From positions 2,194,995 to 2,218,994 of the forward strand of contig NZ_CP021023.1 in NCBI RefSeq assembly GCF_002117005.1: a stretch of 24,000 nt of DNA, in the 5' to 3' direction. The position numbers were made by a program, and so were the translations under genes. Positions 2,559 through 19,059 of this stretch are shown here, piece by piece. Origin of the DNA: Sedimentisphaera salicampi (GTDB lineage Bacteria; Planctomycetota; Phycisphaerae; Sedimentisphaerales; Sedimentisphaeraceae). The notes below the pieces were generated by a model that saw only the letters and a program-made list of their open reading frames with translations, did not search any database and was not told the DNA's origin. The first letter of the stretch is position 1; each line of letters starts with the position of its first letter.

Positions 2559-5165
2559 ATGGAAAGTACCAAAGGCATTGCGGAAGTTGATCAATCACTG
2601 CAAGAGAAAGTTCTAAACGTTACTCAAAGGGTGTCCAAGGCTGCTGAGCAGTTTCCTGATAAAACAGCAGTGAGCGACGAAAATCATTCGATAACCTTTT
2701 CAGAGTTGATATCGGTTTCAGACGTCATTGCAAAAGAGCTGCTTTCAAGAAAAATCAAAATGGAGGAGAAAGTTGGCATAAGCTGCGGCCAAAGCGTTGA
2801 GGCTGTCGTTTCTGCGCTTGCTGTGATGAAGGTGGGCGGAGCTTACGTGCCGCTTGATGCAGACTATCCGGACGAAAGGCTGATATATATCGCCGAAAAT
2901 TCGAATATGAATGTTTTATTCTGCATCAAGGGCAATCCCCCCAAATGGGCTGAAGGCCGTGAGATTATTGAGGTAGATCTTGATGAAATTCTCAAATCAG
3001 AATTTCCCAAAGAGCACATATCGGTTGATTATCCCCCAAACACCCTTGCCTATTCAATGTACACCTCCGGGTCAACGGGTACACCCAAGGGTGTGGAAAT
3101 AGAGCACAGAAATCTCAATCAGGAGATAGACTGGAATATAGAGTTTCACGAGTTAACCAGCGATGATGCTGCAAGCCTTGTTTCGAGCTTCAGTTTTGAT
3201 GTTTCGGTCTCGGAGGTCTGGAGCACATTATCCGTTGGAGCGAGGGTTTGCGTGGCACCTCCGTCCAAGGTTTACTCGCCTAAAAATCTGATTGAGTGGC
3301 TGTGCAGTGCGGGGATAACAGTGGCCCTTTTAGGCACCCCTCTTGCTGAAAAGGCTATTCGTTTAGAATGGCCTGAGGACTGCCCAGTTCGCACAGTCCG
3401 AACTATGGGCGACAGGCTCAGAGTAAGACCTTTGCCTAATTTGCCGTTTAAATTGTACAATGAGTATGGCCCTACAGAATGCACAGTTACTGTTACAGCG
3501 GGGCTGGTTTCGCCGGAAGACGACGGCAAATATCCCCACATCGGAAAGGAAGTGGGCGATTGCGTTATACATATCCTTGATGAAGAATTAAATCCCGTTC
3601 AGGATGGAGAGGAAGGCGAGCTCTGCATCAGCGGCGGCTGCGTTGCAAGGGGGTATGCCGGTATGCCCGAGAAAACTGCCGAAGTATTCGTGCCGGACCC
3701 AATCATAAAGGGCAATCGAATGTACCGAACCGGCGATGTTGCAAAGATGCGGCCGGATGGTAATATCGATTATGTTGGAAGGCGGGATTTGCAGGTTCAG
3801 ATCCGCGGGTTCAGGGTTGAGCTCAGCGAAATCGAAAAGTATGTTCTGGACAGCAAAAACGTCAATTCCGCTGCAATAGTTGCATCAGAAGAAGATGACG
3901 GCATCAGGCTCTACTGCTTCATAGAGCCGAAATCAGAGCCGTTCAATGTGAAATCACTCACAGATTTCCTTTCCTCCAAGCTCCCCACTTACATGAGACC
4001 AAGCGGATATTACGTGTTAGAGAAGATGCCGCTGAATGTAAACGGTAAAATAGACAGGAAGAAACTGCTCGCAGACGTTGTAGATAACCGGATTGAGAGG
4101 CATTCAAGAACAGATGAGATTGTAAAGCCCAGAAACCCGATGGAAGAGGTGCTCTGGGAAACTTGGAAACAAATCCTACGCAGAGAAGACTTCGGGATTT
4201 ACGACAACTTCTTCGACCTCGGCGGCCACTCTCTGATGGCTATAAAAATGGAAGCACTTTTAAGCAAACGCGGGCTTACTCTCACATTTGAAAAGGTGAT
4301 AAATTATCCTGTCATATCGCAGCTTGCTGCATTTTTGGAATTCAAGGTAGCGGGTAAAGAAAGCTCAGATGAGAAGTGCATAGTAACTCTGAACAAGGGC
4401 AGAAAGGATAGAGCCCCTGTTTATTTCCTCCATTCTACCAGCGGCGACATACTGGGCTATGCCAATATTGTGCACACCCTTGGCGAAGACCAGCCTTGCT
4501 TCGGTTTTCAGTCTATCGGGCTCTGGCATATTGATCAGGCAGACAAAACAATCGAGCAAATGGCTTCCAGATACGTTAAACTGCTGAATGAAATCCAGCC
4601 GGAAGGGCCGTTTGCCCTTGTAGGATGGTGCTTTGGGGGTTGGGTTGCTTATGAAATGGCCAAAATATTCAGAAAACAGGGCAGGCAGGTGGAAATTTTG
4701 GCGCTCATAGATGCCCCTGCCAAACTTACCGGCTCTAAGAAACTGCGTCAGTATCTAACGATTATCAAAAACCTTATCGCCCTCGGCCCAGCCGAAATGA
4801 CCAAAGAAATTGTAAAAAGGCTCAAGACAAAGGAATCCGACCTTGCAGCAGATGTGATTGGAGCCCATTTTGATGAGCAGGACGAAGAATTCAAAAACAG
4901 ATATGTATCAAATCGAGCAGAAGTGTATGACCATAATTTAGCCGCCGCTTATGCATATAAAGCAGGCAGTTATGACGATAAAGTGGTGCTTTTCAAGGCT
5001 CAGGACAGCGAGCTTTGGAAACTAAGAGGGCAGAAACTCGGCTGGGAATTAGTTGTTGATCACTTGCAGCTCGAGATTATCCCGGGAGAGCATAAAGATT
5101 TGATGAAGGAAAACAGCGAAATCGCTCTAAGGCTGAGAAAAATGATCGAAGACATCAGCGTTTAG
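2559..5165 (+). CDS. Stand-alone NRPS-like enzyme with adenylation, thiolation (PCP) and thioesterase domains (A-T-TE) and no condensation domain
   Basis: A-domain core motifs are present: YTSGSTGTPKGV (A3, aa 168-179), FDVSVSE (A4, D214), NEYGPTE (A5), GELCISGGCVARGY (A6), YRTGD (A7), GRRDLQVQIRGFRVEL (A8) and NGKIDRK (A10, K497). The carrier motif is FFDLGGHSLMAI (Ser558, nt 4230-4232). The alpha/beta-hydrolase TE shows YFLHSTSGD, GWCFGG (Cys691, nt 4629-4631), LIDAP and PGEHKDLM. The SD AAGGAG (2547-2552) lies 6 nt before the ATG. Confidence 0.9.
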   Translation: MESTKGIAEVDQSLQEKVLNVTQRVSKAAEQFPDKTAVSDENHSITFSELISVSDVIAKELLSRKIKMEEKVGISCGQSVEAVVSALAVMKVGGAYVPLDADYPDERLIYIAENSNMNVLFCIKGNPPKWAEGREIIEVDLDEILKSEFPKEHISVDYPPNTLAYSMYTSGSTGTPKGVEIEHRNLNQEIDWNIEFHELTSDDAASLVSSFSFDVSVSEVWSTLSVGARVCVAPPSKVYSPKNLIEWLCSAGITVALLGTPLAEKAIRLEWPEDCPVRTVRTMGDRLRVRPLPNLPFKLYNEYGPTECTVTVTAGLVSPEDDGKYPHIGKEVGDCVIHILDEELNPVQDGEEGELCISGGCVARGYAGMPEKTAEVFVPDPIIKGNRMYRTGDVAKMRPDGNIDYVGRRDLQVQIRGFRVELSEIEKYVLDSKNVNSAAIVASEEDDGIRLYCFIEPKSEPFNVKSLTDFLSSKLPTYMRPSGYYVLEKMPLNVNGKIDRKKLLADVVDNRIERHSRTDEIVKPRNPMEEVLWETWKQILRREDFGIYDNFFDLGGHSLMAIKMEALLSKRGLTLTFEKVINYPVISQLAAFLEFKVAGKESSDEKCIVTLNKGRKDRAPVYFLHSTSGDILGYANIVHTLGEDQPCFGFQSIGLWHIDQADKTIEQMASRYVKLLNEIQPEGPFALVGWCFGGWVAYEMAKIFRKQGRQVEILALIDAPAKLTGSKKLRQYLTIIKNLIALGPAEMTKEIVKRLKTKESDLAADVIGAHFDEQDEEFKNRYVSNRAEVYDHNLAAAYAYKAGSYDDKVVLFKAQDSELWKLRGQKLGWELVVDHLQLEIIPGEHKDLMKENSEIALRLRKMIEDISV
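2616..4073 (+). other. Adenylation (AMP-binding) domain of the A-T-TE enzyme, approximate bounds
   Basis: Motifs A3 to A10 occur in canonical order between aa ~20 and ~505. Confidence 0.85.
4137..4343 (+). other. Thiolation / peptidyl-carrier domain, approximate bounds
   Basis: It carries the LGGHSL phosphopantetheine-attachment motif, with the Ser codon TCT at 4230-4232. Confidence 0.85.
4392..5156 (+). other. Type I thioesterase domain with a Cys nucleophile, approximate bounds
   Basis: The nucleophile elbow reads G-W-C-F-G (nt 4623-4637). The candidate Asp is in ALIDAP and the candidate His in PGEHKDLM. Confidence 0.8.
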
Positions 5166-7895: not shown

Positions 7896-8828
7896 TTAAT
7901 TTGCAGAAAAATAGTCGTAGTCCATCTCTTTAATTTCATAAACATTCGAAACAGAAACTCCAACACCTGTTTCAATCATATAATTAGCTAAATTTTTGCC
8001 GTCAATCAGAATAATACTAGAGTTGATCTTCTTAGCATAATCGATTGCTTCATTACTAAATTTAGCAGTTGCTATAAATATTCCTTTTTGAGCTTTTTGA
8101 CCTTGCAATGCACCTGCAAATTTTTGTATTTCGGGCCTGCCTATTGTTTTTGACGTATCCCATTTTTTTGCTTGTACATAAATAATATCCAAGCCTAATT
8201 TATCTTCTTTGATGTATCCATCTATTCCTTCATCTCCACTTTTACCAATAGCTTTTCCGGCATCTCTCCTTGAGCCTCCATACCCCATTTTAAGCAATAA
8301 ATCAATTACAATTTTTTCAAAAAGGTCAGGGGAAGATTCATACAGACTCGATAATAATTCCTGCGAAAGCGTATTGTTGATCTGTTCAAAACAAATTTCT
8401 AGCTGTTCTTCTGGGGTTACAGAGTCTCTGTTATTCCCCTTCGTGGTTTTGGTGTAATGATTGAGCTTTCTATTACTGTTTCTAAAATCGTTAAATGAAG
8501 GGAATTTTTTTAAATAATTTAGATCTATAGAAGTCAGTCCTTCATTTAAGGTTTTAAGTCCATTTTCTGTAATTTGAATTTGTCCGCGTTTCGCCTGCTT
8601 TATGAGCCCTGCTTTTTTTAAGTATGTTTTAGCCCATCCTATTCTGCTTTTGTAAACTTCCTGTTGCCCGCTGGGTAAGAAAACTTTTTTTTGACTTTCT
8701 GATAAATCCAATTTCTCAGCCAAGATGTTATAAATATCAACCATGTTGTAACAATTACCATCTTTTATAAATTCCAACATAGGCAACATGAACTTAAAAA
8801 AGTTAGGTACATCTACTTTTTCCTCCAT
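7896..8828 (-). CDS. mrr: Mrr-family type IV (modification-dependent) restriction endonuclease
   Basis: The N-terminal Mrr_N winged-helix pattern is present (LPMLEFIKDG...SRIGWAKTYLKKAGLIKQAKRGQIQITENGLKTL). The C-terminal Mrr catalytic core is present (GDEGIDGYIKEDKLGLDIIYVQAKKW, a D...QxK nuclease variant). I prefer ATG 8828, which has AGGAG 7 nt upstream, over the track's TTG at 8834. Confidence 0.85.
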   Translation of the reverse strand: MEEKVDVPNFFKFMLPMLEFIKDGNCYNMVDIYNILAEKLDLSESQKKVFLPSGQQEVYKSRIGWAKTYLKKAGLIKQAKRGQIQITENGLKTLNEGLTSIDLNYLKKFPSFNDFRNSNRKLNHYTKTTKGNNRDSVTPEEQLEICFEQINNTLSQELLSSLYESSPDLFEKIVIDLLLKMGYGGSRRDAGKAIGKSGDEGIDGYIKEDKLGLDIIYVQAKKWDTSKTIGRPEIQKFAGALQGQKAQKGIFIATAKFSNEAIDYAKKINSSIILIDGKNLANYMIETGVGVSVSNVYEIKEMDYDYFSAN

Positions 8829-8929
8829 ACTCAATCTCCTGAATAAAATGACAACTCGATTTAATGTAATTTAATATCTGTATAGGCTACAGGCAATGAT
8901 AGATCCTGTCAAGTGTTAAAATAGTTTTT

Positions 8930-9886
8930 TTACGACTTGAGAACCGATTTTATTTTATTCTCCAGATTTATCTTTTTATCTGCGCTGCCTAATGTTCCGT
9001 CGAAGATGTGAACGCAGCCCTTTGCCTGCAGTTCTGCGAGGAATCTGTCGAATTTGCTCTTTTTCTTCGGCTCGTTCTTCAGCACCTCCACCTTCGCTGC
9101 ACCTGTGCTCACGCATTCGCTTATCATCGAGGATGAGTCGCTGGTAACGAAGAGGTATTCGCTCATAGCAATAAATGCGGGTATTGGGTTATACCGGCTC
9201 TCTGAGAAGATTAGCTTGTAATCGAACGGGAATGAAGCGGCAATTTTTTCCACCTTTCTGCTCGTGCGGCGGGAAGTTGTCAGCCAGTGCGGCATGTTTG
9301 GGGTTTTCTCGAAGATCTTCTCAAGCTGTCCGCGAATCTTTTCGGGATCTATCTTCCCGTACGCATTTTCGCCCCCAATAATAACGCTCACAGCAGGGCC
9401 TTTTAGGCCGGTTTTCTCTGAGAATTCGGCTGCCTTCTGCTTATAAAAACTTTCCCCGCGGTTGCATAGGGTGATTGGTATGGGCGTAATATTCTCTGCC
9501 CGAGGGGGGTTGTCGTAGGATGGGCAGAAGATATGCGAAAAATCCGATTTGCGAATTCCGCGGGGGAGCATCAAAGCTATCACTTCCACCCCGAGGCGCT
9601 TGGCGAGCACCTTTGCCGGATAGTATGCCCCCGAGCTCACCGCAACAATCCTGCTTATTCCCTCCGTTATCTCCGGCGGGGTTACACCCCCATCGGAGCT
9701 GGTGAGGTTGAATGGCATATTGCTGTAGAGCCTGAGGGCATCCAGCATATAGCCGGCTGCCTTGAACGCCTTGAGCCTGTATTCTGCAGCAGCTTCAATG
9801 CAGTCCCAGCCCATAATGCTACATAATGCCCGGGCCTGATTGAGATGGCCGGGCTTGCCGTCGCTTATGATTAAAACTTTTTCCAT
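8930..9886 (-). CDS. ELM1/DUF1022-family protein (putative GT-B-like glycosyltransferase; bacterial function unknown)
   Basis: The N-terminus MEKVLIISDGKPGHLNQARALCSIMGW matches my recollection of the family signature (xxIxSDGKxGHxNQ). Length and the alternating alpha/beta pattern fit. The track ORF extends to 9982, but those 32 extra residues are Cys/Trp-rich and look non-coding, so I call ATG 9886. Confidence 0.55.
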   Translation of the reverse strand: MEKVLIISDGKPGHLNQARALCSIMGWDCIEAAAEYRLKAFKAAGYMLDALRLYSNMPFNLTSSDGGVTPPEITEGISRIVAVSSGAYYPAKVLAKRLGVEVIALMLPRGIRKSDFSHIFCPSYDNPPRAENITPIPITLCNRGESFYKQKAAEFSEKTGLKGPAVSVIIGGENAYGKIDPEKIRGQLEKIFEKTPNMPHWLTTSRRTSRKVEKIAASFPFDYKLIFSESRYNPIPAFIAMSEYLFVTSDSSSMISECVSTGAAKVEVLKNEPKKKSKFDRFLAELQAKGCVHIFDGTLGSADKKINLENKIKSVLKS

Positions 9887-10010
9887 TTCGTTTTCCACGC
9901 TTTCCCAGAAGCACAATGGTAACGAAATTCCGCCGCTATGGCAAGCCCAAACGCTCCCGCATAGCGAAAGCGTGCAGAACACCTGAAATCGGGGTTAGCG
10001 GAATATTGCA

Positions 10011-10070: not shown

Positions 10071-11261
10071 TTATTTCAGCAGCTTCAGGCCGAAGCCCGG
10101 GGTTTCCGGCGTGGATATTTTGCCGTTTTTTATTTCGAAGCCGGAGAAATCCACGTCTTCCGAGAAGCATGTAACACCTTCTATCGTTGGAATATTCCCG
10201 AGCCCTCTTGAGAGGTGGGAGATATAGCATGTCTTCAGCATAGACCCCCAAGCGTGTGGCGAGGCGAGGGTATTGAGCTTTTTGAGCCGAGGCATAATCT
10301 GCCTCCAAGGGGTAAAGCCCATTCCGATAATGTCTGTAAGGTAGAAATCGAGCAGCCCCTGCTTTGCCAGCGATATGAGCTGCGCCTGCACAGGGAGCCT
10401 CTCGCCGTCGGCGATGTAGGTTGATTTGCCGTTCTCCTTGAGCCACTTTTTAAGCTTTTCAAAGCCTTCCTTCTCTTCACGGAAGGGCTCTTCCATCCAG
10501 TAAAGCTCTGTATCGCCGATCCCCTTGAGATATTCGATTGTATCCTGATAGGTGTACATATCGTTTGCATCTGCAAGAAGCTCAGCATAGGGGAAGGCCT
10601 TGGCGATCTGATTTGTAACGTCTATATCCCTCTGCATACCCTCTTTTTCGGGCATCCACTTCTTCCCGCGTCCAATCTTTATCTTAAACTGCCTGTATCC
10701 GAAGTTGTAGTCGTATCGGCAGTTTTCGAGAACCTTATCGATTCCTTCAGGGTTGTCTTCGGGGTCGAGATCGTCGAAGTATATCATACCGCTGTAGCAG
10801 TTTGTGCTTTCCGGGCCTGCTGCCCCAAGCATTTTATACACAGGCATTTCGAGAATCTTCCCCGCCAGATCGTGCAGGGCGATATCGAGCTGTTCCGGAG
10901 CGGAGGGCTTTATGCCTGAGGCTGGTGTTATCAGATCAGATATTTTGAGCCCTTTAAGCGAATTATTGAGTATTTCGGCTCTGTCTCTGCCCGCGTAAAA
11001 CGTTCCCCAGCCCTCTGCGCCTTTGTCTGTTCGAATTTTACAGATGCTCACTGTCGGTCCGTTGCCGTGGTGTCCGAGGCGGGAATTCCGCCCTACGTGG
11101 CGGGGGTATTTCAGCCTTACCCTGTCATACTGTATTGAGCTGATTTTGTGGTCTGACAAAGCTTGTGAAATCTCGGCCGGCTCGTTTGCTGAAGCGGTAT
11201 TTGAATAGCCCAGGGCAGCTGCCGCAGCGGCGGATGCCTGAAGGAATTCACGTCTTTTCAT
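10071..11261 (-). CDS. Enolase-superfamily enzyme (mandelate racemase / acid-sugar dehydratase-like) with an N-terminal twin-arginine signal
   Basis: The Tat-type N-terminus is MKRREFLQASAAAAAALGYSNTASA|NE. Barrel motifs occur in order: FKIKIG (KxK), LADANDMY (metal Asp), LYWMEEPF (metal Glu), YIADGERL (third ligand), LTDIIGMG plus ASPHAWG (Asp/His dyad, MR-subgroup style). The SD AAGGAG lies 6 nt upstream of the ATG. Confidence 0.8.
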   Translation of the reverse strand: MKRREFLQASAAAAAALGYSNTASANEPAEISQALSDHKISSIQYDRVRLKYPRHVGRNSRLGHHGNGPTVSICKIRTDKGAEGWGTFYAGRDRAEILNNSLKGLKISDLITPASGIKPSAPEQLDIALHDLAGKILEMPVYKMLGAAGPESTNCYSGMIYFDDLDPEDNPEGIDKVLENCRYDYNFGYRQFKIKIGRGKKWMPEKEGMQRDIDVTNQIAKAFPYAELLADANDMYTYQDTIEYLKGIGDTELYWMEEPFREEKEGFEKLKKWLKENGKSTYIADGERLPVQAQLISLAKQGLLDFYLTDIIGMGFTPWRQIMPRLKKLNTLASPHAWGSMLKTCYISHLSRGLGNIPTIEGVTCFSEDVDFSGFEIKNGKISTPETPGFGLKLLK

Positions 11262-11399: not shown

Positions 11400-13490
11400 A
11401 TGTTAAAATCAATGATCAAAAATTTTCTGCTGCTGTCCTTAATATTTCTGGCAGGGCAGGCTTTCAGCGAGGATGTAAAATTCTCCACGCTGCTTGAGGA
11501 TATGGTTAATCCCGATATCACTGCTCAGTGGCCGGAGCCGGAGTATGAATGTCTTCAGCTCAGCAGCAGAGACCCTGCCTCAAAGCAGAAAGGCGAGCCG
11601 AATTGGTGGGCAAATAACGACAGAAGCCATTTTCTGCGAATCGAGACTAATTACGGCAGAAAAGAGTATGTCCTTATGGATGCTGAAGGGCCGGGTGCAA
11701 TTGTAAGGATTTGGAGCACATGGCATGGCCCGGGCGGGAGTGAATTCAGCAACGGGACATTGAGATTCTATTTCGATAATGAAAGCAAGCCTGCAATAGA
11801 AGCCCCTATAACTGAAATACTCGATAAAGGCTATCTGGCAGACGCCCCGCTGGGCAATTCCGTTGCCAAAACTACAGAATACTCAAAACGCGGGCACAAT
11901 CTCTACCTTCCGATCCCCTATTCAAAGGCCTGCAAAGTAACCTACCAGACAAATAAATTTATAGATAAAGGCGGCAAAAAGGGCGAAGCTCTCTACTACA
12001 TCATAAATTACCGCAAATATCCAGAAGAAACTGATGTAGAAACCTTCTCAATGAAGGCTCTTAAAGATAATTCTGAATTGCTGGATAATGTGCAGAGCAA
12101 GCTGAAAAACGGCATCAAGATTGGCGGCAGGCCTTCTGCAGCTTTTAACGGAACATTATCTCCCGGGCAGTCTGCTCAATTACGACTCAGCGGGCAGAGA
12201 AGCATCAAAGGCATAAAAGTTAGGCTTGGTGAATCAGGCGGGATTTCAAAAGCACTTCGCAGCATCATTATTAAAGCAAAATTTGACGGCAAACAGACTG
12301 TATGGTCTCCGTTGGGTGATTTTTTCGGCACAGGTTATCAGCTCCATCCATATCAAACCTTTTATACCGGCGTGAGAAAAGATGGGCAGATGTACTGCAA
12401 TTGGATTATGCCGTTTAAGCAAAACGCCGAGGTGGTTGTGGAAAATATTGGCTCCGATACATTTTTTGTTGAGAAATGCGAGGTATATACCAAGCCATGG
12501 CAATGGGATGAGAATTCGCTTTATTTCCATTCAGGCTGGAAGCAGTGGAAAGATATAAAAACCCGCAGCAACGAGGACAATCCCGCAAACGGAGCGTTCG
12601 ACTTGAACTGGGTTACCATAAACGGCAAGGGGAAGTATGTGGGCGATGCGCTTACAATTTTCAACAATGCCCCGAGATGGTGGGGCGAGGGTGATGAAAA
12701 GATCTACATCGACGGCGAGGATTTCCCCTCCCACTTCGGCACAGGCACAGAAGACTACTACGGCTATGCGTGGTGCAGGCCGGCAGCATTCAGCGCACCC
12801 TTTCACGCCCAGCCCTGCGGAGCAGGCAATTTCCAGAAGGGGTTCACAGTAAACAGCAGGTTCCGCTCTCTGGACGCAATCCCGTTCAGCAAGAGCCTGA
12901 AATTCGATATGGAGCTATGGCACTGGGCGGAAACCACCGTAGATTATGCCCCTGTGATGTTCTGGTATGCCAAGAAAGATTCAAGCTCGAATCTAGGCCC
13001 GCAGCCGGAAGAGGCGCTGAAGCCCCTGCCGGATATCAGCGAAGATGGAAGGGTTCATATTGATATAGAAGGGGCGATTGAAGGCGAAGATATGCAGATA
13101 GCCCGCTGCGAAGGCGGCAGGGCATTCGTGCAGAACAATCCTCAATTCGGCTGGAGCGAGGATGCGCAGGTTTGGTGGCAAAACGGTGAGCCCGGGCAGA
13201 AACTCGTTTTGAAGTTCGAAAGCAGCAAGAGCGGAGAGTTCAAGGTTTATGCAAATCTAACAAAGGCAAGAGATTACGGCATAGTAAATATCTGCCTGAA
13301 CGGCGAGCTTATGAAGGAAAACATCGATCTTTTTAATCCTAAAGTTAAGGCCAGAGAAACGCTTCTCGGGAAAGCCGAAATACGCAAGGGGGAAAATGAG
13401 ATTGAAGTGCAGATTAAAGGCGCCAATCAAAAAGCCGTAAAGAGGCATATGTTCGGGCTTGATTACATTAAGCTTATGCCTGCAGAGTAA
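11400..13490 (+). CDS. Secreted DUF2961 / glycoside hydrolase family 172-like protein with an extra C-terminal beta-sandwich-like domain
   Basis: There is a Sec signal (MLKSMIKNFLLLSLIFLAGQAFS). DUF2961 hallmarks are present: GPGAIVRIW and WWGEGDEKIYIDGEDFPSHFGTGTEDYYGYAW. The additional ~140-aa C-terminal domain spans aa 553-696. Confidence 0.8.
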   Translation: MLKSMIKNFLLLSLIFLAGQAFSEDVKFSTLLEDMVNPDITAQWPEPEYECLQLSSRDPASKQKGEPNWWANNDRSHFLRIETNYGRKEYVLMDAEGPGAIVRIWSTWHGPGGSEFSNGTLRFYFDNESKPAIEAPITEILDKGYLADAPLGNSVAKTTEYSKRGHNLYLPIPYSKACKVTYQTNKFIDKGGKKGEALYYIINYRKYPEETDVETFSMKALKDNSELLDNVQSKLKNGIKIGGRPSAAFNGTLSPGQSAQLRLSGQRSIKGIKVRLGESGGISKALRSIIIKAKFDGKQTVWSPLGDFFGTGYQLHPYQTFYTGVRKDGQMYCNWIMPFKQNAEVVVENIGSDTFFVEKCEVYTKPWQWDENSLYFHSGWKQWKDIKTRSNEDNPANGAFDLNWVTINGKGKYVGDALTIFNNAPRWWGEGDEKIYIDGEDFPSHFGTGTEDYYGYAWCRPAAFSAPFHAQPCGAGNFQKGFTVNSRFRSLDAIPFSKSLKFDMELWHWAETTVDYAPVMFWYAKKDSSSNLGPQPEEALKPLPDISEDGRVHIDIEGAIEGEDMQIARCEGGRAFVQNNPQFGWSEDAQVWWQNGEPGQKLVLKFESSKSGEFKVYANLTKARDYGIVNICLNGELMKENIDLFNPKVKARETLLGKAEIRKGENEIEVQIKGANQKAVKRHMFGLDYIKLMPAE

Positions 13491-13502
13491 AGAAAGGGCT
13501 TT

Positions 13503-14990
13503 ATGATGTACTCCAGCAGAAGAATTTTTCTAAAACGTGCCGGCGGGCTTGCAGCTTTAACTGCTTTCTCCGGCCTTGCAGAGAGCTTATCGGCCGCTAA
13601 ATCGCAGAAACTGCCGAATTTTGTTGTAATATTCACAGACGATCAGGGATATGAAGACGTGGGCTGCTTTGGCGCCGAGGGCTTCGAAACCACCAACTTA
13701 GATAAAATGGCCGCTGAGGGGATGAGATTTACCGATTTCCACGTATCCCAGAGCGTATGCAGCCCCTCAAGAGCCGCTCTTATGACAGGCTGCTATCACC
13801 CGCGGGTTGGGATATACAAGGCCCTTTTCCCGCACGTAAACCGTGGACTAAATCCGAAAGAAGAAACCATAGCCGAAGTGTTAAAACCCAGGGGCTATCG
13901 CTGCGGGATATTCGGGAAATGGCATCTCGGCCATCGCTATCCGTTCCTTCCGCTTCAGCAGGGTTTTGACGAGTATTTCGGACTGCCCTATTCAAACGAT
14001 ATGTGGCCGCGTGATTTCGACGGCACAAGCCTCAAGGACGGCTTCCATCCGAAAGCCAGATGGCGGATCGGAATACCGGATTTGCCTCTGATGAAGGGCA
14101 ATACAATCATTGACCGCATCAGAACTATGGAAGACCAGAGCAAGCTCACAACTATGTACACCGAAAGGGCAGTTGATTTCATTGAGAGAAATAAATCCGA
14201 GCCGTTTTTCCTTTATCTGCCCCATTCAATGCCGCATGTCCCGCTTGCAGTGAGCGATAAGTTTCGCGGGAAGAGCAGAAAGGGCATTTACGGCGACGTG
14301 ATTATGGAGATAGACTGGTCTGCGGGCGAGATTTTCAAAGCTTTGAAAAGAAACGGCTTAGACGAAAACACGCTCGTAATCTTCACCTCAGATAACGGCC
14401 CTTGGCTCAACTACGGCAAGCATGGCGGCTCAGCCGACCCTCTCAGAGAGGGCAAAGGCTCAAACTGCTGGGAAGGGGGCAACAGAGTTCCCTGCATAAT
14501 GAGATGGCCGGGCAAAATCCCCGCCTCCAGCGAATGCGATAAACTCGCTGCCGCAATCGACATACTGCCCACATTTGCCAGTCTCAGCGGAGCGAGCCTG
14601 CCCGAGAAGAAAATAGACGGCGTTGATATAACGGCCCTGCTTGAAGGCAGGGAAAATGCAGAGCCTCGAAAAGATTATTTCTACTATTACGAAAAAGAGC
14701 TTGATGCTGTAAGACGCGGGCCTTGGAAGCTCGTATTCCCCCATAAGTACCGCGGCTGCGAAGGGGTTGAACCCGGGAAGAACGGATTCCCCGGCCCAAG
14801 AGAGCTTCGCAAAGCGGAGAAAGGGTTGTACAATCTGAATAAGGATATCGAAGAAGAGAAAAATGTGATCAATGAACACCCTGATATAGTTAAGGAGCTT
14901 GAAAAACTGGCCGAATCTGCCAGAGAAGAACTTGGCGACAGCTTGCACAACATTCGCGGCAAGGGGCAGAGGCCGGTAGGCAGAATATAA
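13503..14990 (+). CDS. Formylglycine-dependent sulfatase (S1 family, arylsulfatase-like) with a Tat-type signal
   Basis: The signal motif is SRRIFLK. The active-site motif is SVCSPSRAALMTG (C-x-P-x-R). Also present are FTDDQG, GKWHLG and TSDNGP. The gene starts 12 nt after the previous stop. Confidence 0.9.
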   Translation: MMYSSRRIFLKRAGGLAALTAFSGLAESLSAAKSQKLPNFVVIFTDDQGYEDVGCFGAEGFETTNLDKMAAEGMRFTDFHVSQSVCSPSRAALMTGCYHPRVGIYKALFPHVNRGLNPKEETIAEVLKPRGYRCGIFGKWHLGHRYPFLPLQQGFDEYFGLPYSNDMWPRDFDGTSLKDGFHPKARWRIGIPDLPLMKGNTIIDRIRTMEDQSKLTTMYTERAVDFIERNKSEPFFLYLPHSMPHVPLAVSDKFRGKSRKGIYGDVIMEIDWSAGEIFKALKRNGLDENTLVIFTSDNGPWLNYGKHGGSADPLREGKGSNCWEGGNRVPCIMRWPGKIPASSECDKLAAAIDILPTFASLSGASLPEKKIDGVDITALLEGRENAEPRKDYFYYYEKELDAVRRGPWKLVFPHKYRGCEGVEPGKNGFPGPRELRKAEKGLYNLNKDIEEEKNVINEHPDIVKELEKLAESAREELGDSLHNIRGKGQRPVGRI

Positions 14991-15007
14991 TATTAAAAGG
15001 AGAAATT

Positions 15008-16474
15008 ATGAAATCCAGAAGAGAATTTTTGAAGACAGGCTGCCTTATGGGCGCCTCACTTGCTTTCGGTTCTTCCCTAATCGGGGCTGAAAAGAAAACC
15101 AAAAGACCGAATATCATATTTATTATGGCCGATGACCATGCCTCGCAGGCCTTCAGCTGCTACGGAAGCAATCGAAACAAAACTCCACACCTCGACCGAA
15201 TCGCCGAAGAGGGGATGCTGTTTGAAAACTGCTTCTGCACAAATTCAATTTGTGCTCCGAGCCGAGCGGTAATTCTCACAGGCAAGTACAGTCATATCAA
15301 CGGCAAAACAACCAACAGACACAACAATCCTTTCGACGGCTCGCAGCAGACAGTACCAAAGCTGATGCGTAAAGGCGGGTATCAGACAGCAATGATCGGC
15401 AAATGGCATCTCAGGAGCGAACCAACAGGCTTCGACCACTGGGAGGTGCTCCCCGGGCAGGGCAAATACCACAACCCCGTTTTCAAAACCGAGAAAGGGC
15501 GGAAGAAGTATGAAGGCTATGTAACGGACCTCATCACAGACTTCACAATCGACTGGCTCGAAAACCGCAATGAAGACAAGCCGTTCTTCTTGATGTGTCA
15601 TCATAAAGCACCGCATAGAAGCTGGCATCCAGACGAGAAACACGAAGGGATGTATGCAGATAAGGAAATCCCCGTACCAGAGACTTTCGACGACGATTAC
15701 TCCACGCGCTGCGCAGCGGCAAAAGAAAGCGCAATGTCTATTCAAAGCCATCTTCGCAAATGGGACTTGAAGAAAACCCCGCCCAAAGGGCTCACAAAGG
15801 AAGAACGCAAACATTGGAACTACCGCAGGTATATGGAAGACTACCTCGCCTGCATCGCTTCAATCGATGATAATATCGGCAGGCTCCTCGATTACCTCAA
15901 AAAAAGCGGGCTCGAAGAAAATACTATGATCATCTACACCTCAGATCAGGGCTTCTTCCTCGGCGAACACGGCTGGTTCGACAAGCGGTTTATGTATGAG
16001 GAGTCTCTCAGGATGCCATTGCTTATGAGATGGCCCGGGCACATAAAGCCGGGAAGCGTTACCGATTCGATGGTGATGAATCTGGATTTCGCCCCCACTT
16101 TCCTCGACGCCGCTGGGCTGGATATCCCCAATGATATTCAGGGTGAAAGCTTCACCCCCATTTTGGAAGGCAGTGAGCCGGAAAAATGGCGGGATTCCGT
16201 TTATTACCATTACTACGAATACCCAGCAGTGCATTCTGTGAAAAGGCATTACGGCATAAGAACCAAGCGATACAAGCTGATCCATTTCTACTTCGATATA
16301 GACTGTTGGGAGCTTTACGACTTAAAGAATGACCCGAACGAACTTAACAATCTGTACGGAAAACCTGAATATCAGTCTCTTGTGAAAAGGCTTAAGGCTG
16401 AGCTGAAGAGGCTTCAGGTGAAATATAAAGATACTGAATTTATTAAAAACTTTGGCGGAGGTAAGAAACTATGA
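15008..16474 (+). CDS. Formylglycine-dependent sulfatase (S1 family) with a DUF4976-like C-terminus and a Tat-type signal
   Basis: The signal motif is SRREFLK. The active-site motif is SICAPSRAVILTGKY. Also present are MADDHA, GKWHL, TSDQGFFLGEHG and the C-terminal WELYDLKNDPNELNNLY. The SD AAAGGAG lies upstream. Confidence 0.9.
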   Translation: MKSRREFLKTGCLMGASLAFGSSLIGAEKKTKRPNIIFIMADDHASQAFSCYGSNRNKTPHLDRIAEEGMLFENCFCTNSICAPSRAVILTGKYSHINGKTTNRHNNPFDGSQQTVPKLMRKGGYQTAMIGKWHLRSEPTGFDHWEVLPGQGKYHNPVFKTEKGRKKYEGYVTDLITDFTIDWLENRNEDKPFFLMCHHKAPHRSWHPDEKHEGMYADKEIPVPETFDDDYSTRCAAAKESAMSIQSHLRKWDLKKTPPKGLTKEERKHWNYRRYMEDYLACIASIDDNIGRLLDYLKKSGLEENTMIIYTSDQGFFLGEHGWFDKRFMYEESLRMPLLMRWPGHIKPGSVTDSMVMNLDFAPTFLDAAGLDIPNDIQGESFTPILEGSEPEKWRDSVYYHYYEYPAVHSVKRHYGIRTKRYKLIHFYFDIDCWELYDLKNDPNELNNLYGKPEYQSLVKRLKAELKRLQVKYKDTEFIKNFGGGKKL

Positions 16475-19059
16475 CTTACACTTTACGGAATTTCTTGGCA
16501 TCAATTATAATCATTGGTGCTGTAGCTGCGGTTTGTTCTGCAGCTTCAGAGAGCTTTATTACAGGCGATGTACGGATTCAGCCGCTCTCTGAAACACTTG
16601 TGCGAATGGAAGTGCGGGGGCCGAAGGGCTTTGAAGACCGGCCTACCTTCCATATCCAAAACAGGGACTTGGGATGCGCCGAAGCGGAGAAGGTTGTTAG
16701 GAGAGACAATCTTATCGTTAAAACTTCTGCCTACAGCGTTCATATCCCTCAAAACGCCGAAAATCTCGACAAAGCCTACATAACCGATTCTGCAGGCAGG
16801 AAAGTCTGGAGCAAAGAAGGCGATTCAGAGTATTTCCCTATTATAACCCGCTGGCCGAACAGCGGCGGAGGCTTCCTTTACGATAAGGGCAAGCTGCTTG
16901 GGTACTCACAAAATGAAAATACAGACGAATTCCTCTGGAAGAAAGAGACTAAGGGAGGTTGGTTCAGGCTGAAAAACAAAGCCACAGGCGATTATATCTA
17001 TATAGACAGCGGCAAGGATAAGATCTATGCCGGCAAGCCCGATAATATAAAAAAGGCCGAATGGAAGGGAGAATCCGCAGGAGCGGGGTATGTACGCCTC
17101 AAAAACAGAGCCTATCCGAAATACTATATCCATATAGAAAATCAAAAGGGATATGCCGAAGTTGCCACTAAAGAAACTACCAACGATACCAACACCCCTC
17201 TCAGCCGCTGGCACAGCGCCAACTGGAAGCTGGATAAGAAGAGCAGAAACCGCAGATACCTCCCCGAGCCAACAGAAAAAACAAAGGCGTGGATGATAGC
17301 AGATGAGCCCAGATACGTTCCTTCAAGATGGGAATACAACCCTGCTCCTGAAGGCGTCGAAAACAACGGCTGGGACATGAGCAATAATACTGAAGATATT
17401 TACGTATTCCTCCCGCAGGGAAACTGGAAGAGGCTCAGGCAGGATTTTATTGAGCTTACCGGCAGAACAAATCTTGTGTCTCTCTATGCCCTTGGCGGCT
17501 GGGACAGCAGATATCATCCCTACACCCAGAAAGAGGCTCTGAATAAGATAAAGAAGTATCAGAGCAAGGATATCCCTCTGGATGTATTTGTGGTAGATAC
17601 AAACTGGCGCGTTGGTGCTTCTATAGGGTATGATATAAACAAAAAACTTTTCCCTGATATGGAAAGGTTTATTTCAAATGCCCACGATCTCGGCAAGAAA
17701 ATTATGTTCAACGACCACCCAGAACCCCAGGCTGAGGCTCTGGAGAGGGAGGAAGTGGTTTACAGAAACGACGGGCTGCGAGGCCTTTTCGATATAGGCC
17801 TTGATTTCTGGTGGTTCGACAGAAACTGGCACACCTGCATAAACCCGCCTGAGGGCATTGCAAAGGAAGTGTTCGGGATGTATATCTACGATGCAGTAAC
17901 AAGGGACTACTACCCGCACCGCAGGCCGCTGATTATGGCAAACTACGACGGAATAGACCACGGAAAGATCAACCGGCCTTCCAATATCGCCGCCCACAGA
18001 TACTCAATCCAGTGGACAGGCGACACCCGCTCGCACTGGAACTCACTCAAGGATGAGGTAAGGAACGCTGTATTTGCCGGTGTTTACGGGCCGTTCCCAT
18101 ATCTCAGCACCGACGTTGGCGGGCATATGGGCGAGCTCACAACAGAGCAGTACTGCCGCTGGGTTCAGTTTGGAACGCTCTCGCCAATATTCCGTCTGCA
18201 TTGCGGAAGAAAATGGACAAGAGACCCATGGGACTATGATGAACCCTGCGAATCGGTTGTTCGGGAGTTTATGCAGATGCGTATGCGGCTACTGCCCGTG
18301 CTCTATACCGCAGCAAGGGAAAACTACGAAACAGGCGAGCCGATTATGAAACGCTGCGACCTTCTCTACCCCGAATACGAAGAGGCAAAGACAAACCATC
18401 AGTATCTGATTGGCGATGATATACTCTTTGCCCCTGTTTATGAGCCTATGAAGGATAGCCCGAAACGCTCGCTCTGGCTTCCGCCGGGAGAATGGATCAA
18501 CGCATTCACAGGCGAGGTGCTTAAAGGCGGGGAAACGATTTCAGTAGATATCGCCCTCGAAACAGCCCCGCTGTTTGTGCGCAGCGGATCAGTTATCCCG
18601 CTTGCCCCGAATATGCTCGATACCACCAAAAAGCCGTGGGAGCCGGTAACTCTGGATATTTATCCTTCTTCTAAGACCGCTGCAAAGGCCGAGCTCTACG
18701 AAGATGACCGGATGAGCAGAGACTACGAAGAAGGCTTCTACAGGGAAACCGCCTTCTCCTGCAAGCCGGAAAAGGGCGGGAAAGTGCTGAATGTGGAGAT
18801 CTCTGCGGCTGATGGTACATTCCAGAATTCTCTCAAGACCAGAAGCTGGAAACTGCGTATTCACAAGCCGGAAGGCGTTAAGACAATCAGCAAGGTTCTC
18901 GCAGACGGGAAAAAAGCAAGCTTCAAGACAATCCGGAAAGACTCTGGGAAGATGCCTTTCGCCGTTGAAGGCGGCAGCCCGGACGGGGATGTTTTTGAAA
19001 TCACCCTTCCCGAGAAAAGCGTTTATCAAAGCCGGAACGTGAAAATTACATTTGAGTAG
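16471..19059 (+). CDS. Secreted glycoside hydrolase family 31 enzyme with an inserted beta-trefoil-like module
   Basis: The signal peptide is MTYTLRNFLASIIIIGAVAAVCSAAS. GH31 catalytic-barrel motifs are present: DVFVVDTNW, FWWFDRNW (candidate nucleophile Asp), HRYSIQWTGDTRSHW and STDVGGHMG (candidate acid/base Asp). The ATGA start/stop overlap with the upstream sulfatase indicates translational coupling. Confidence 0.85.
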   Translation: MTYTLRNFLASIIIIGAVAAVCSAASESFITGDVRIQPLSETLVRMEVRGPKGFEDRPTFHIQNRDLGCAEAEKVVRRDNLIVKTSAYSVHIPQNAENLDKAYITDSAGRKVWSKEGDSEYFPIITRWPNSGGGFLYDKGKLLGYSQNENTDEFLWKKETKGGWFRLKNKATGDYIYIDSGKDKIYAGKPDNIKKAEWKGESAGAGYVRLKNRAYPKYYIHIENQKGYAEVATKETTNDTNTPLSRWHSANWKLDKKSRNRRYLPEPTEKTKAWMIADEPRYVPSRWEYNPAPEGVENNGWDMSNNTEDIYVFLPQGNWKRLRQDFIELTGRTNLVSLYALGGWDSRYHPYTQKEALNKIKKYQSKDIPLDVFVVDTNWRVGASIGYDINKKLFPDMERFISNAHDLGKKIMFNDHPEPQAEALEREEVVYRNDGLRGLFDIGLDFWWFDRNWHTCINPPEGIAKEVFGMYIYDAVTRDYYPHRRPLIMANYDGIDHGKINRPSNIAAHRYSIQWTGDTRSHWNSLKDEVRNAVFAGVYGPFPYLSTDVGGHMGELTTEQYCRWVQFGTLSPIFRLHCGRKWTRDPWDYDEPCESVVREFMQMRMRLLPVLYTAARENYETGEPIMKRCDLLYPEYEEAKTNHQYLIGDDILFAPVYEPMKDSPKRSLWLPPGEWINAFTGEVLKGGETISVDIALETAPLFVRSGSVIPLAPNMLDTTKKPWEPVTLDIYPSSKTAAKAELYEDDRMSRDYEEGFYRETAFSCKPEKGGKVLNVEISAADGTFQNSLKTRSWKLRIHKPEGVKTISKVLADGKKASFKTIRKDSGKMPFAVEGGSPDGDVFEITLPEKSVYQSRNVKITFE

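Follow-up and report, generated by a model that had tools for sequence, protein, structure and literature searches.

In the TE (thioesterase) domains of the nonribosomal peptide synthetases (NRPSs) ObiF and SulM, which form beta-lactone and beta-lactam rings, the nucleophile is a cysteine. This Cys is required in both enzymes and is paired with an Asp shifted to the loop after strand beta7, giving a RifR-like triad (PMC6668435, PMC11298585). ObiF carries Gly at the canonical acid site, and restoration of an EntF-like triad was reported to hinder loading sterically (PMC6668435), while the SulM TE is marked by a Gln-Cys-Asn motif and by an adenylation-domain code for Dap (PMC11298585). A second arrangement is that of AB3403 (ABBFA_003403, PDB 4ZXH/4ZXI) from Acinetobacter baumannii, in which the nucleophilic Cys is accompanied by an Asp after beta6, as in ordinary NRPS thioesterases (PMC11298585). 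The indolyl macrolactam-forming BulbE-TE, from the bulbiferamide NRPS of Microbulbifer, likewise uses Cys961, Asp988 (at +27, after beta6) and His1097; it needs the Cys for aminolysis by a poor nucleophile, and Cys-to-Ser exchange abolishes macrolactamisation and raises hydrolysis (PMC11536411). Here we describe an NRPS-like gene from a 24,000-nucleotide stretch of the Sedimentisphaera salicampi genome (contig NZ_CP021023.1, positions 2,194,995 to 2,218,994; hereafter the window), which encodes an adenylation-thiolation-thioesterase (A-T-TE) protein with a Cys at the TE elbow and with the acid in the AB3403-like position. The gene is intact and stands alone, and we estimate a probability of about 0.6 that it specifies a self-contained module whose aminoacyl group, held on that Cys, is passed to a nucleophile other than water.

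The nucleophile elbow and its nearest relatives

S. salicampi is a salt-loving planctomycete (Planctomycetota, Phycisphaerae). The gene product has 868 residues and is 99% identical to an S. salicampi protein and 82% identical to its orthologue in Sedimentisphaera cyanobacteriorum, as judged by homologue search. Pfam assigns AMP-binding (27-366), AMP-binding_C (424-497), PP-binding (534-593) and Thioesterase (PF00975, 659-857; 75.5 bits against a cutoff of 26.4, E 9.5e-21), and the same scan of the protein finds no condensation (C) domain. The features of the gene are as follows.

2559-5165, + strand: NRPS-like A-T-TE gene without C domain, 868 aa (open reading frame, translation, Pfam, homologues)
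2637-4049, + strand: adenylation domain, aa 27-497 (Pfam; core motifs intact)
4158-4337, + strand: thiolation (carrier) domain, aa 534-593 (Pfam PP-binding)
4380-5162, + strand: type I thioesterase domain, aa 608-868, assigned to the AB3403-like Cys subfamily (PF00975, TE-only AlphaFold2 model, Foldseek, profile)
4623-4637, + strand: nucleophile elbow G689-W690-C691-F692-G693 (sequence read, AlphaFold2 models, alignments)
4710-4712, + strand: Asp718, predicted triad acid, +27 from the Cys and directly after strand beta6 (AlphaFold2 models, alignments)
5091-5093, + strand: His845, predicted triad histidine in PGEH, directly after strand beta8 (AlphaFold2 models, alignments)

The elbow is encoded by GGA TGG TGC TTT GGG, in frame with the open reading frame (ORF), and the codon of Cys691, TGC, lies at 4629-4631. 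AlphaFold2 was run on the whole protein (pLDDT 86) and on the isolated TE (pLDDT 90, pTM 0.88), and the TE model matches TE domains in Foldseek at probability 1.00. In both models Cys691 sits on the turn between a strand (685-690) and a helix (692-706), Asp718 immediately follows strand 711-717 and His845 immediately follows strand 833-844. The three residues are thus modelled as a complete triad in canonical geometry, and Cys691 is the probable catalytic nucleophile, which would carry a thioester acyl-enzyme. The original prediction, made from the sequence alone, had read G-W-C-F-G with Cys691 at the elbow of a minimal A-T-TE protein and had named an Asp in ALIDAP and a His in PGEHKDLM as candidate partners. 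Pfam bears out the architecture, the candidates are Asp718 and His845, and the structural comparison that it called for, by models, Foldseek and alignment to AB3403, does place Cys691 at the elbow.

The Cys is shared by every close relative: the 99% identical S. salicampi protein, the S. cyanobacteriorum orthologue and three more distant genes without a C domain considered below (both at locus L001, and P0010). Since, in addition, its codon alternates between TGC and TGT among relatives and the adjoining codons show synonymous changes, it is not a sequencing error. G689, C691, G693 and H624 do not vary among 70 full-length Cys-type relatives, 69 of which keep W690 and 69 H845. Position 718 is acidic in 68 of the 70, being Glu in 42 and Asp in 26, as seen when the Cys-TE representatives P0121-P0269 were aligned to this residue. 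Glu is therefore the more frequent triad acid of Cys-type TEs, while all eight full-length Ser-type relatives have Asp.

Three comparisons place AB3403 closest to this TE. A phmmer search with the T-TE region returns it first (4ZXH, 1e-28), followed near 1e-14 by the TEs of skyllamycin and Pks13 and by EntF and NocB; a profile of seven Cys-type TEs run against the PDB also puts it first, aligned end to end at 4.4e-39; and Foldseek ranks 4ZXH first against the TE model. The elbow of AB3403, GWCFGG, is identical to the one considered here, and the ID motif, with the acid after beta6, and the PG(D/E)H motif, with the His, align as well. ObiF1 (6N8E) and the SulM TE are missing from the phmmer list (E<=0.01), from the best 60 profile matches, which reach E-values of about 1, and from the Foldseek top 50; although they share a Cys in a GxCxG-type elbow, their detectable affinity to this TE is no greater than that of generic thioesterases. 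The position of the acid separates them too, for Asp718 occupies the canonical site and is conserved, whereas the residue after beta7, Asp816, is acidic in only 61% of the family. Nor are the marks of SulM present, the motif here being Trp-Cys-Phe and the adenylation code DVSLRMEVTK. By alignment and model this TE thus appears to have the arrangement of AB3403 and BulbE (Cys691, Asp718 at +27, His845), and it can be assigned to the ordinary type I NRPS TEs, within a large subfamily that has a Cys nucleophile and AB3403 as its structural prototype.

The likeness has its bounds. Identity to AB3403 is only about 25% over the whole domain in the Foldseek alignment, and AB3403 has the order C-A-T-TE and is a termination module belonging to a multi-gene cluster; the Sedimentisphaera protein, by contrast, lacks a C domain and is alone. 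BulbE-TE, a possible subfamily member by its published triad, acts on a ureido-peptide from a multimodular enzyme, which it closes into a 15-atom macrolactam; here only a single aminoacyl unit is expected. Literature searches for GXCXG motifs and for a census of Cys thioesterases yielded nothing beyond the ObiF, SulM and BulbE papers.

How common the Cys is was gauged in several ways. An exhaustive phmmer search with the TE over 1.84 billion representatives (50% identity) gave 32,172 matches. Among the best 149 of these the elbow residue is Cys in 91, Ser in 52 and Ala in 3, and the share of Cys falls down the ranks, from 25/30 through 21/30, 18/30 and 17/30 to 10/30. When the elbow column was left out and a neighbour-joining tree was computed from the TE core, this TE fell in a clade of 68 tips, 67 of them with Cys. 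A whole-protein search finds Cys in 25 of 62 TE-bearing proteins. An A-domain-only homologue search, meant as a sample of TEs free of bias towards TE type, returned almost solely stand-alone A-T proteins without a TE, so the Cys frequencies are to be read as lower bounds only.

In a scan of one genome per species, with patterns drawn from the Cys-TE alignment, at least 148 species genomes encode relatives with the narrow motif GP[YFL][LAM]LxGWC[FY]; an earlier scan of contigs with peptide patterns from the whole protein had found no relative, those patterns being too specific. The best-scoring carriers belong to the Planctomycetes-Verrucomicrobia-Chlamydiae (PVC) group (Kiritimatiellales, Pontiellaceae, Verrucomicrobia and Lentisphaerota), and below them come many Streptomyces, cyanobacteria and proteobacteria. 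Judged from these comparisons, the Cys is a stable character of a large clade and is common in genomes and metagenomes; with Cys in the majority and clade-wide, it is not a rare peculiarity of this gene. The view of Cys thioesterases as rare, with which the locus was first singled out, accordingly holds for characterised enzymes, among which alone the Cys is uncommon, and fails for the surroundings of this protein. Ser and Cys do not alternate freely between orthologues, so the condition that the original prediction had named as fatal to it on this score does not arise.

Substrate, acyl transfer and competing explanations

The A domain groups with amino-acid-activating A domains. Alignment shows that both Asp214 (equivalent to GrsA Asp235) and Lys497 (Lys517) are kept, and an alpha-amino acid is therefore expected as the substrate. 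The ten-residue specificity code, read from the alignment columns, is DVSLRMEVTK and is the same in both Sedimentisphaera species; the columns were checked on other rows, which give textbook codes for Leu, Gly, Ser, Cys and Val, among them DAWFLGNVVK, DILQLGLIWK and DLYNNALTYK. The code residues are encoded at 3198-3488 and 4047-4049, and Arg299, Met301 and Glu322 stand out among them, position 301 being nearly always Gly or Ala in A domains. The closest A domain in the PDB is that of LgrA module 1, and the nearest A domains also include a large family of stand-alone A-T proteins with a Leu code. The backbone of the domain is thus nearest to Leu-activating stand-alone A-T proteins, although DVSLRMEVTK is not a Leu code. 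Phosphopantetheine would be attached at Ser558 in LGGHSL (codon 4230-4232), a residue that is invariant across a 46-sequence alignment.

In the reading that we favour, the A domain would adenylate an alpha-amino acid and load it onto the phosphopantetheine arm of Ser558. The aminoacyl group would then move by energy-neutral transthioesterification to Cys691, activated by His845 and Asp718, and would most likely be handed on to a nucleophile other than water. Such an acceptor is preferred because hydrolysis by a module without a C domain would be a futile, ATP-burning cycle, and because a thioester acyl-enzyme is far more reactive towards amines than an oxoester. Work on BulbE (PMC11536411) and ObiF (PMC6668435) likewise indicates that a thioester acyl-enzyme favours amines and poor nucleophiles over hydrolysis. 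If the acceptor is an amine, the aminoacyl group might condense with a second aminoacyl-S-T unit, to yield a dipeptide or diketopiperazine, or might be transferred to an external amine to yield an amide; alternatively, the acceptor might be the thiol of another carrier protein. Amide formation would be the simplest outcome for a module without a C domain. Thus, of the unusual release chemistry that had been suggested for this protein, non-hydrolytic release is plausible, and a link to beta-lactone or beta-lactam chemistry is not supported.

Joining of units without a C domain has a parallel in fungal and bacterial quinone and furanone synthetases (such as TdiA and RalA), A-T-TE enzymes whose TE couples two successively loaded units. 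These enzymes activate aryl alpha-keto acids, and their A domains are not known to carry the alpha-amino-binding Asp235, an absence regarded as defining for the family; the Sedimentisphaera A domain retains that residue as Asp214. One quinone-synthetase paper that was consulted makes no statement on the nucleophile of these enzymes.

A-T-TE(Cys) genes without a C domain recur in several settings. In locus L001 (3-4694) two of them stand in tandem, with GWCFGG in both, followed by a gene for an Sfp-type phosphopantetheinyl transferase (PPTase); P0003, a 48% relative, is the gene between the other A-T-TE(Cys) gene and that for the PPTase. L001 is thus a minimal self-contained set without a condensation domain. 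In locus L002 (717-10613) a complete dimodular NRPS of the order A-T-C-(formyltransferase-like)-A-T-TE, ending in its own Cys-TE (GWCLGG), is followed directly by a separate A-T-TE(Cys) gene without a C domain, P0010, so that one cluster holds two Cys thioesterases. That P0010 might be the terminal module split from the preceding NRPS was considered and rejected, since that NRPS carries its own TE. In the P0120 group (L004, 8001-13016; also L005 and L006) an A-T-TE(Cys) gene with a Leu code is followed by genes for a cytochrome P450 and a PanE-like (2-dehydropantoate-reductase-like) protein. The best NCBIfam match of this P450 is a cyclodipeptide-synthase-associated family, at 202 bits against a cutoff of 500, and its best PDB matches are PksS, CYP267B1 and BioI; with a score so far below the cutoff, the P450 was set aside as proof of a diketopiperazine pathway and is taken as a hint only.

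The nearest Cys-TEs of PVC genomes form the end of a conserved NRPS of about 2,350-2,450 aa with the order A-T-C-(formyltransferase-like insert)-A-T-TE, in which an insert of about 470 aa separates the C domain from the second A domain. This NRPS is shared by Kiritimatiellales, Pontiellaceae, Verrucomicrobia and Lentisphaerota, and we know of no described product.

ORFs ending near 10780: the PVC NRPS, in loci L007, L009, L011-L013, L019, L020, L022, L028 and L030-L032

In light of their occurrence as an orphan, as a tandem pair with a PPTase (L001), beside an NRPS (L002) and beside a P450 (the P0120 group), stand-alone A-T-TE(Cys) proteins might form a recurrent class of C-independent catalysts of amide-bond formation or acyl transfer, so far mainly of PVC bacteria; attack on the aminoacyl-S-Cys thioester by the amine of a second aminoacyl-S-T unit would then make dipeptides or diketopiperazines without a C domain or a cyclodipeptide synthase. 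We offer this generalisation as a speculation with the odds against it.

Several points weigh against transfer of the aminoacyl group from Cys691 to a non-water nucleophile by a self-contained module. The chemistry of the prototype, AB3403, is itself uncharacterised. DVSLRMEVTK, with Arg299, Met301 and Glu322, fits none of the classical codes known to us. A second acidic residue, Asp816, follows beta7 and is acidic in 43 of the 70 Cys-type relatives, so that an acid there (position II) may serve the triad instead. Genes for a PPTase, an acceptor carrier protein, a C domain or tailoring enzymes were looked for and are absent from the 24-kb window, and the neighbours of the S. cyanobacteriorum orthologue are unrelated to those in the window. 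With no NRPS partner genes in the window and with differing neighbours in the two species, context gives no clue to the product.

The alternative that survives best is an aminoacyl shuttle, in which Cys691 would pass the amino acid from thioester to thioester to a carrier protein encoded elsewhere, either an A-less module or a stand-alone T protein. A Cys nucleophile would render both transfers energy-neutral. SyrC and CmaE have a Cys in the active site. Transfer between T domains has precedents in CmaE, SyrC and the type II TE LgnA, which take aminoacyl groups off a T domain by way of a covalent enzyme intermediate, and in PacP (A-T-TE0), a tridomain protein with the same domain order and no C domain, from which the stand-alone T protein PacH receives an aminoacyl group (PMC8748450). 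The parallels are incomplete, however: the TE of PacP lacks a catalytic triad, whereas the triad here is complete; CmaE and SyrC resemble acyltransferases and are free-standing, and LgnA works through Ser77, whereas this TE falls in the terminal type I clade (PF00975, AB3403-like). Moreover, neither an acceptor carrier protein nor an A-less module is encoded in the window or beside the orthologue, and both modules of the NRPS adjoining P0010 in L002 contain an A domain. A shuttle therefore seems to us unlikely, though it is a serious rival.

Less probable still is that the gene is the leftover terminal module of a lost NRPS, without a product of its own, or that the enzyme merely hydrolyses its thioester. 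Such a history would suit an orphan gene that has no conserved neighbours and whose closest TE relatives terminate multimodular NRPSs, and the S. cyanobacteriorum copy does have a one-nucleotide deletion that splits the TE. Against it, the core motifs, the Ser558 site and the triad are all intact and the specificity code is identical in both species. The Nei-Gojobori ratio of nonsynonymous to synonymous substitution rates (dN/dS) against S. cyanobacteriorum is 0.11 overall (A domain 0.13, T domain 0.08, N-terminal part of the TE 0.06), and is 0.13 even downstream of the frameshift. At about 0.11 the gene is maintained by purifying selection, and decay is therefore unlikely.

The lesion itself divides the S. 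cyanobacteriorum orthologue (CP019633.1; L003, about 10150-10200) into ORFs of 728 and 140 aa, by loss of one nucleotide in an A-run (near 10184) just after the triad Asp, equivalent to about 4735-4745 of the window. Since dN/dS downstream of it is still 0.13, either the lesion arose very recently or the assembly is in error at this A-run.

Strained-ring release, which the original prediction had drawn from ObiF and SulM and in which the Cys-TE would cyclise a beta-hydroxy or beta-amino acyl thioester to a beta-lactone or beta-lactam, is very improbable: the required Cys is indeed held in common with both enzymes and an acidic Asp816 does follow beta7, but the canonical acid after beta6 is present where ObiF has Gly, the elbow reads Trp-Cys-Phe, AB3403 heads all three hit lists from which ObiF and SulM are missing, their substrates are N-acylated or peptidyl and made by C domains whereas no C domain for N-acylation is found here, and the 24-kb window holds no genes of ObiH-like or SulN-like type for supply of a beta-hydroxy or beta-amino acid.

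Genomic surroundings

The A-T-TE gene looks monocistronic. It is preceded by an intergenic region in which a hairpin, GCGGGATAATTTTTATCCCGG (about 2146-2166), follows the upstream TPR gene and a ribosome-binding site, AAAGGAG, precedes the ATG; a scan for promoters and terminators gave sites no more numerous than in shuffled sequence.

2134-2558, + strand: intergenic region, 425 nt (sequence read directly)

Downstream, the gene converges on an amino-acid permease-Usp gene. None of the other genes of the window is NRPS-related; they encode TonB-C and TPR proteins, an Mrr endonuclease, an ELM1-like protein, an enolase-superfamily protein, DUF2961, two sulfatases, a GH31 glycosidase, a GNAT acetyltransferase, MnmA, a transglutaminase-like protein and a 4HBT thioesterase. 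A conserved neighbourhood or operon partner was considered and rejected, the gene upstream in L001 being a second A-T-TE gene rather than one for a TPR protein and the S. cyanobacteriorum neighbours being unrelated. Horizontal transfer of the A-T-TE gene was likewise considered, and gave no signal, its GC content (0.43-0.50) being like that of its surroundings.

Three other parts of the window deserve mention. The Mrr-type endonuclease gene (Mrr_N plus Mrr_cat; 7896-8834, - strand) has a GC content of 0.335 against about 0.48 elsewhere, and this stretch is probably a horizontally acquired insert. At 8930-9982 (- strand) an ORF matches Mito_fiss_Elm1 (PF06258, E 1.8e-33), a family named for a eukaryotic mitochondrial fission protein, and a 191-aa ORF on the same strand overlaps its start. 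From 11400 to 19059 (+ strand) DUF2961, two sulfatases and a GH31 glycosidase with a ricin-type lectin domain are encoded in a run that looks like a locus for degradation of sulfated polysaccharides.

The meaning of a cysteine at the elbow

A Cys at the TE elbow does not by itself imply a beta-lactone or beta-lactam. ObiF and SulM are set apart from the AB3403-like Cys clade, a much larger group, by subfamily and by where the triad acid lies, and in the Sedimentisphaera protein the Cys is a trait of that whole clade and no signal of strained-ring formation. In genome mining such a gene is accordingly better labelled "NRPS-like, Cys-TE, product unknown" than listed as a strained-ring candidate. 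The clade is mostly unstudied, AB3403 being its sole solved structure, and a stand-alone A-T-TE protein is an uncommon setting for a thioesterase of this kind. As a small, soluble, single-gene A-T-TE, the protein of S. salicampi would be a convenient model for what the cysteine confers.

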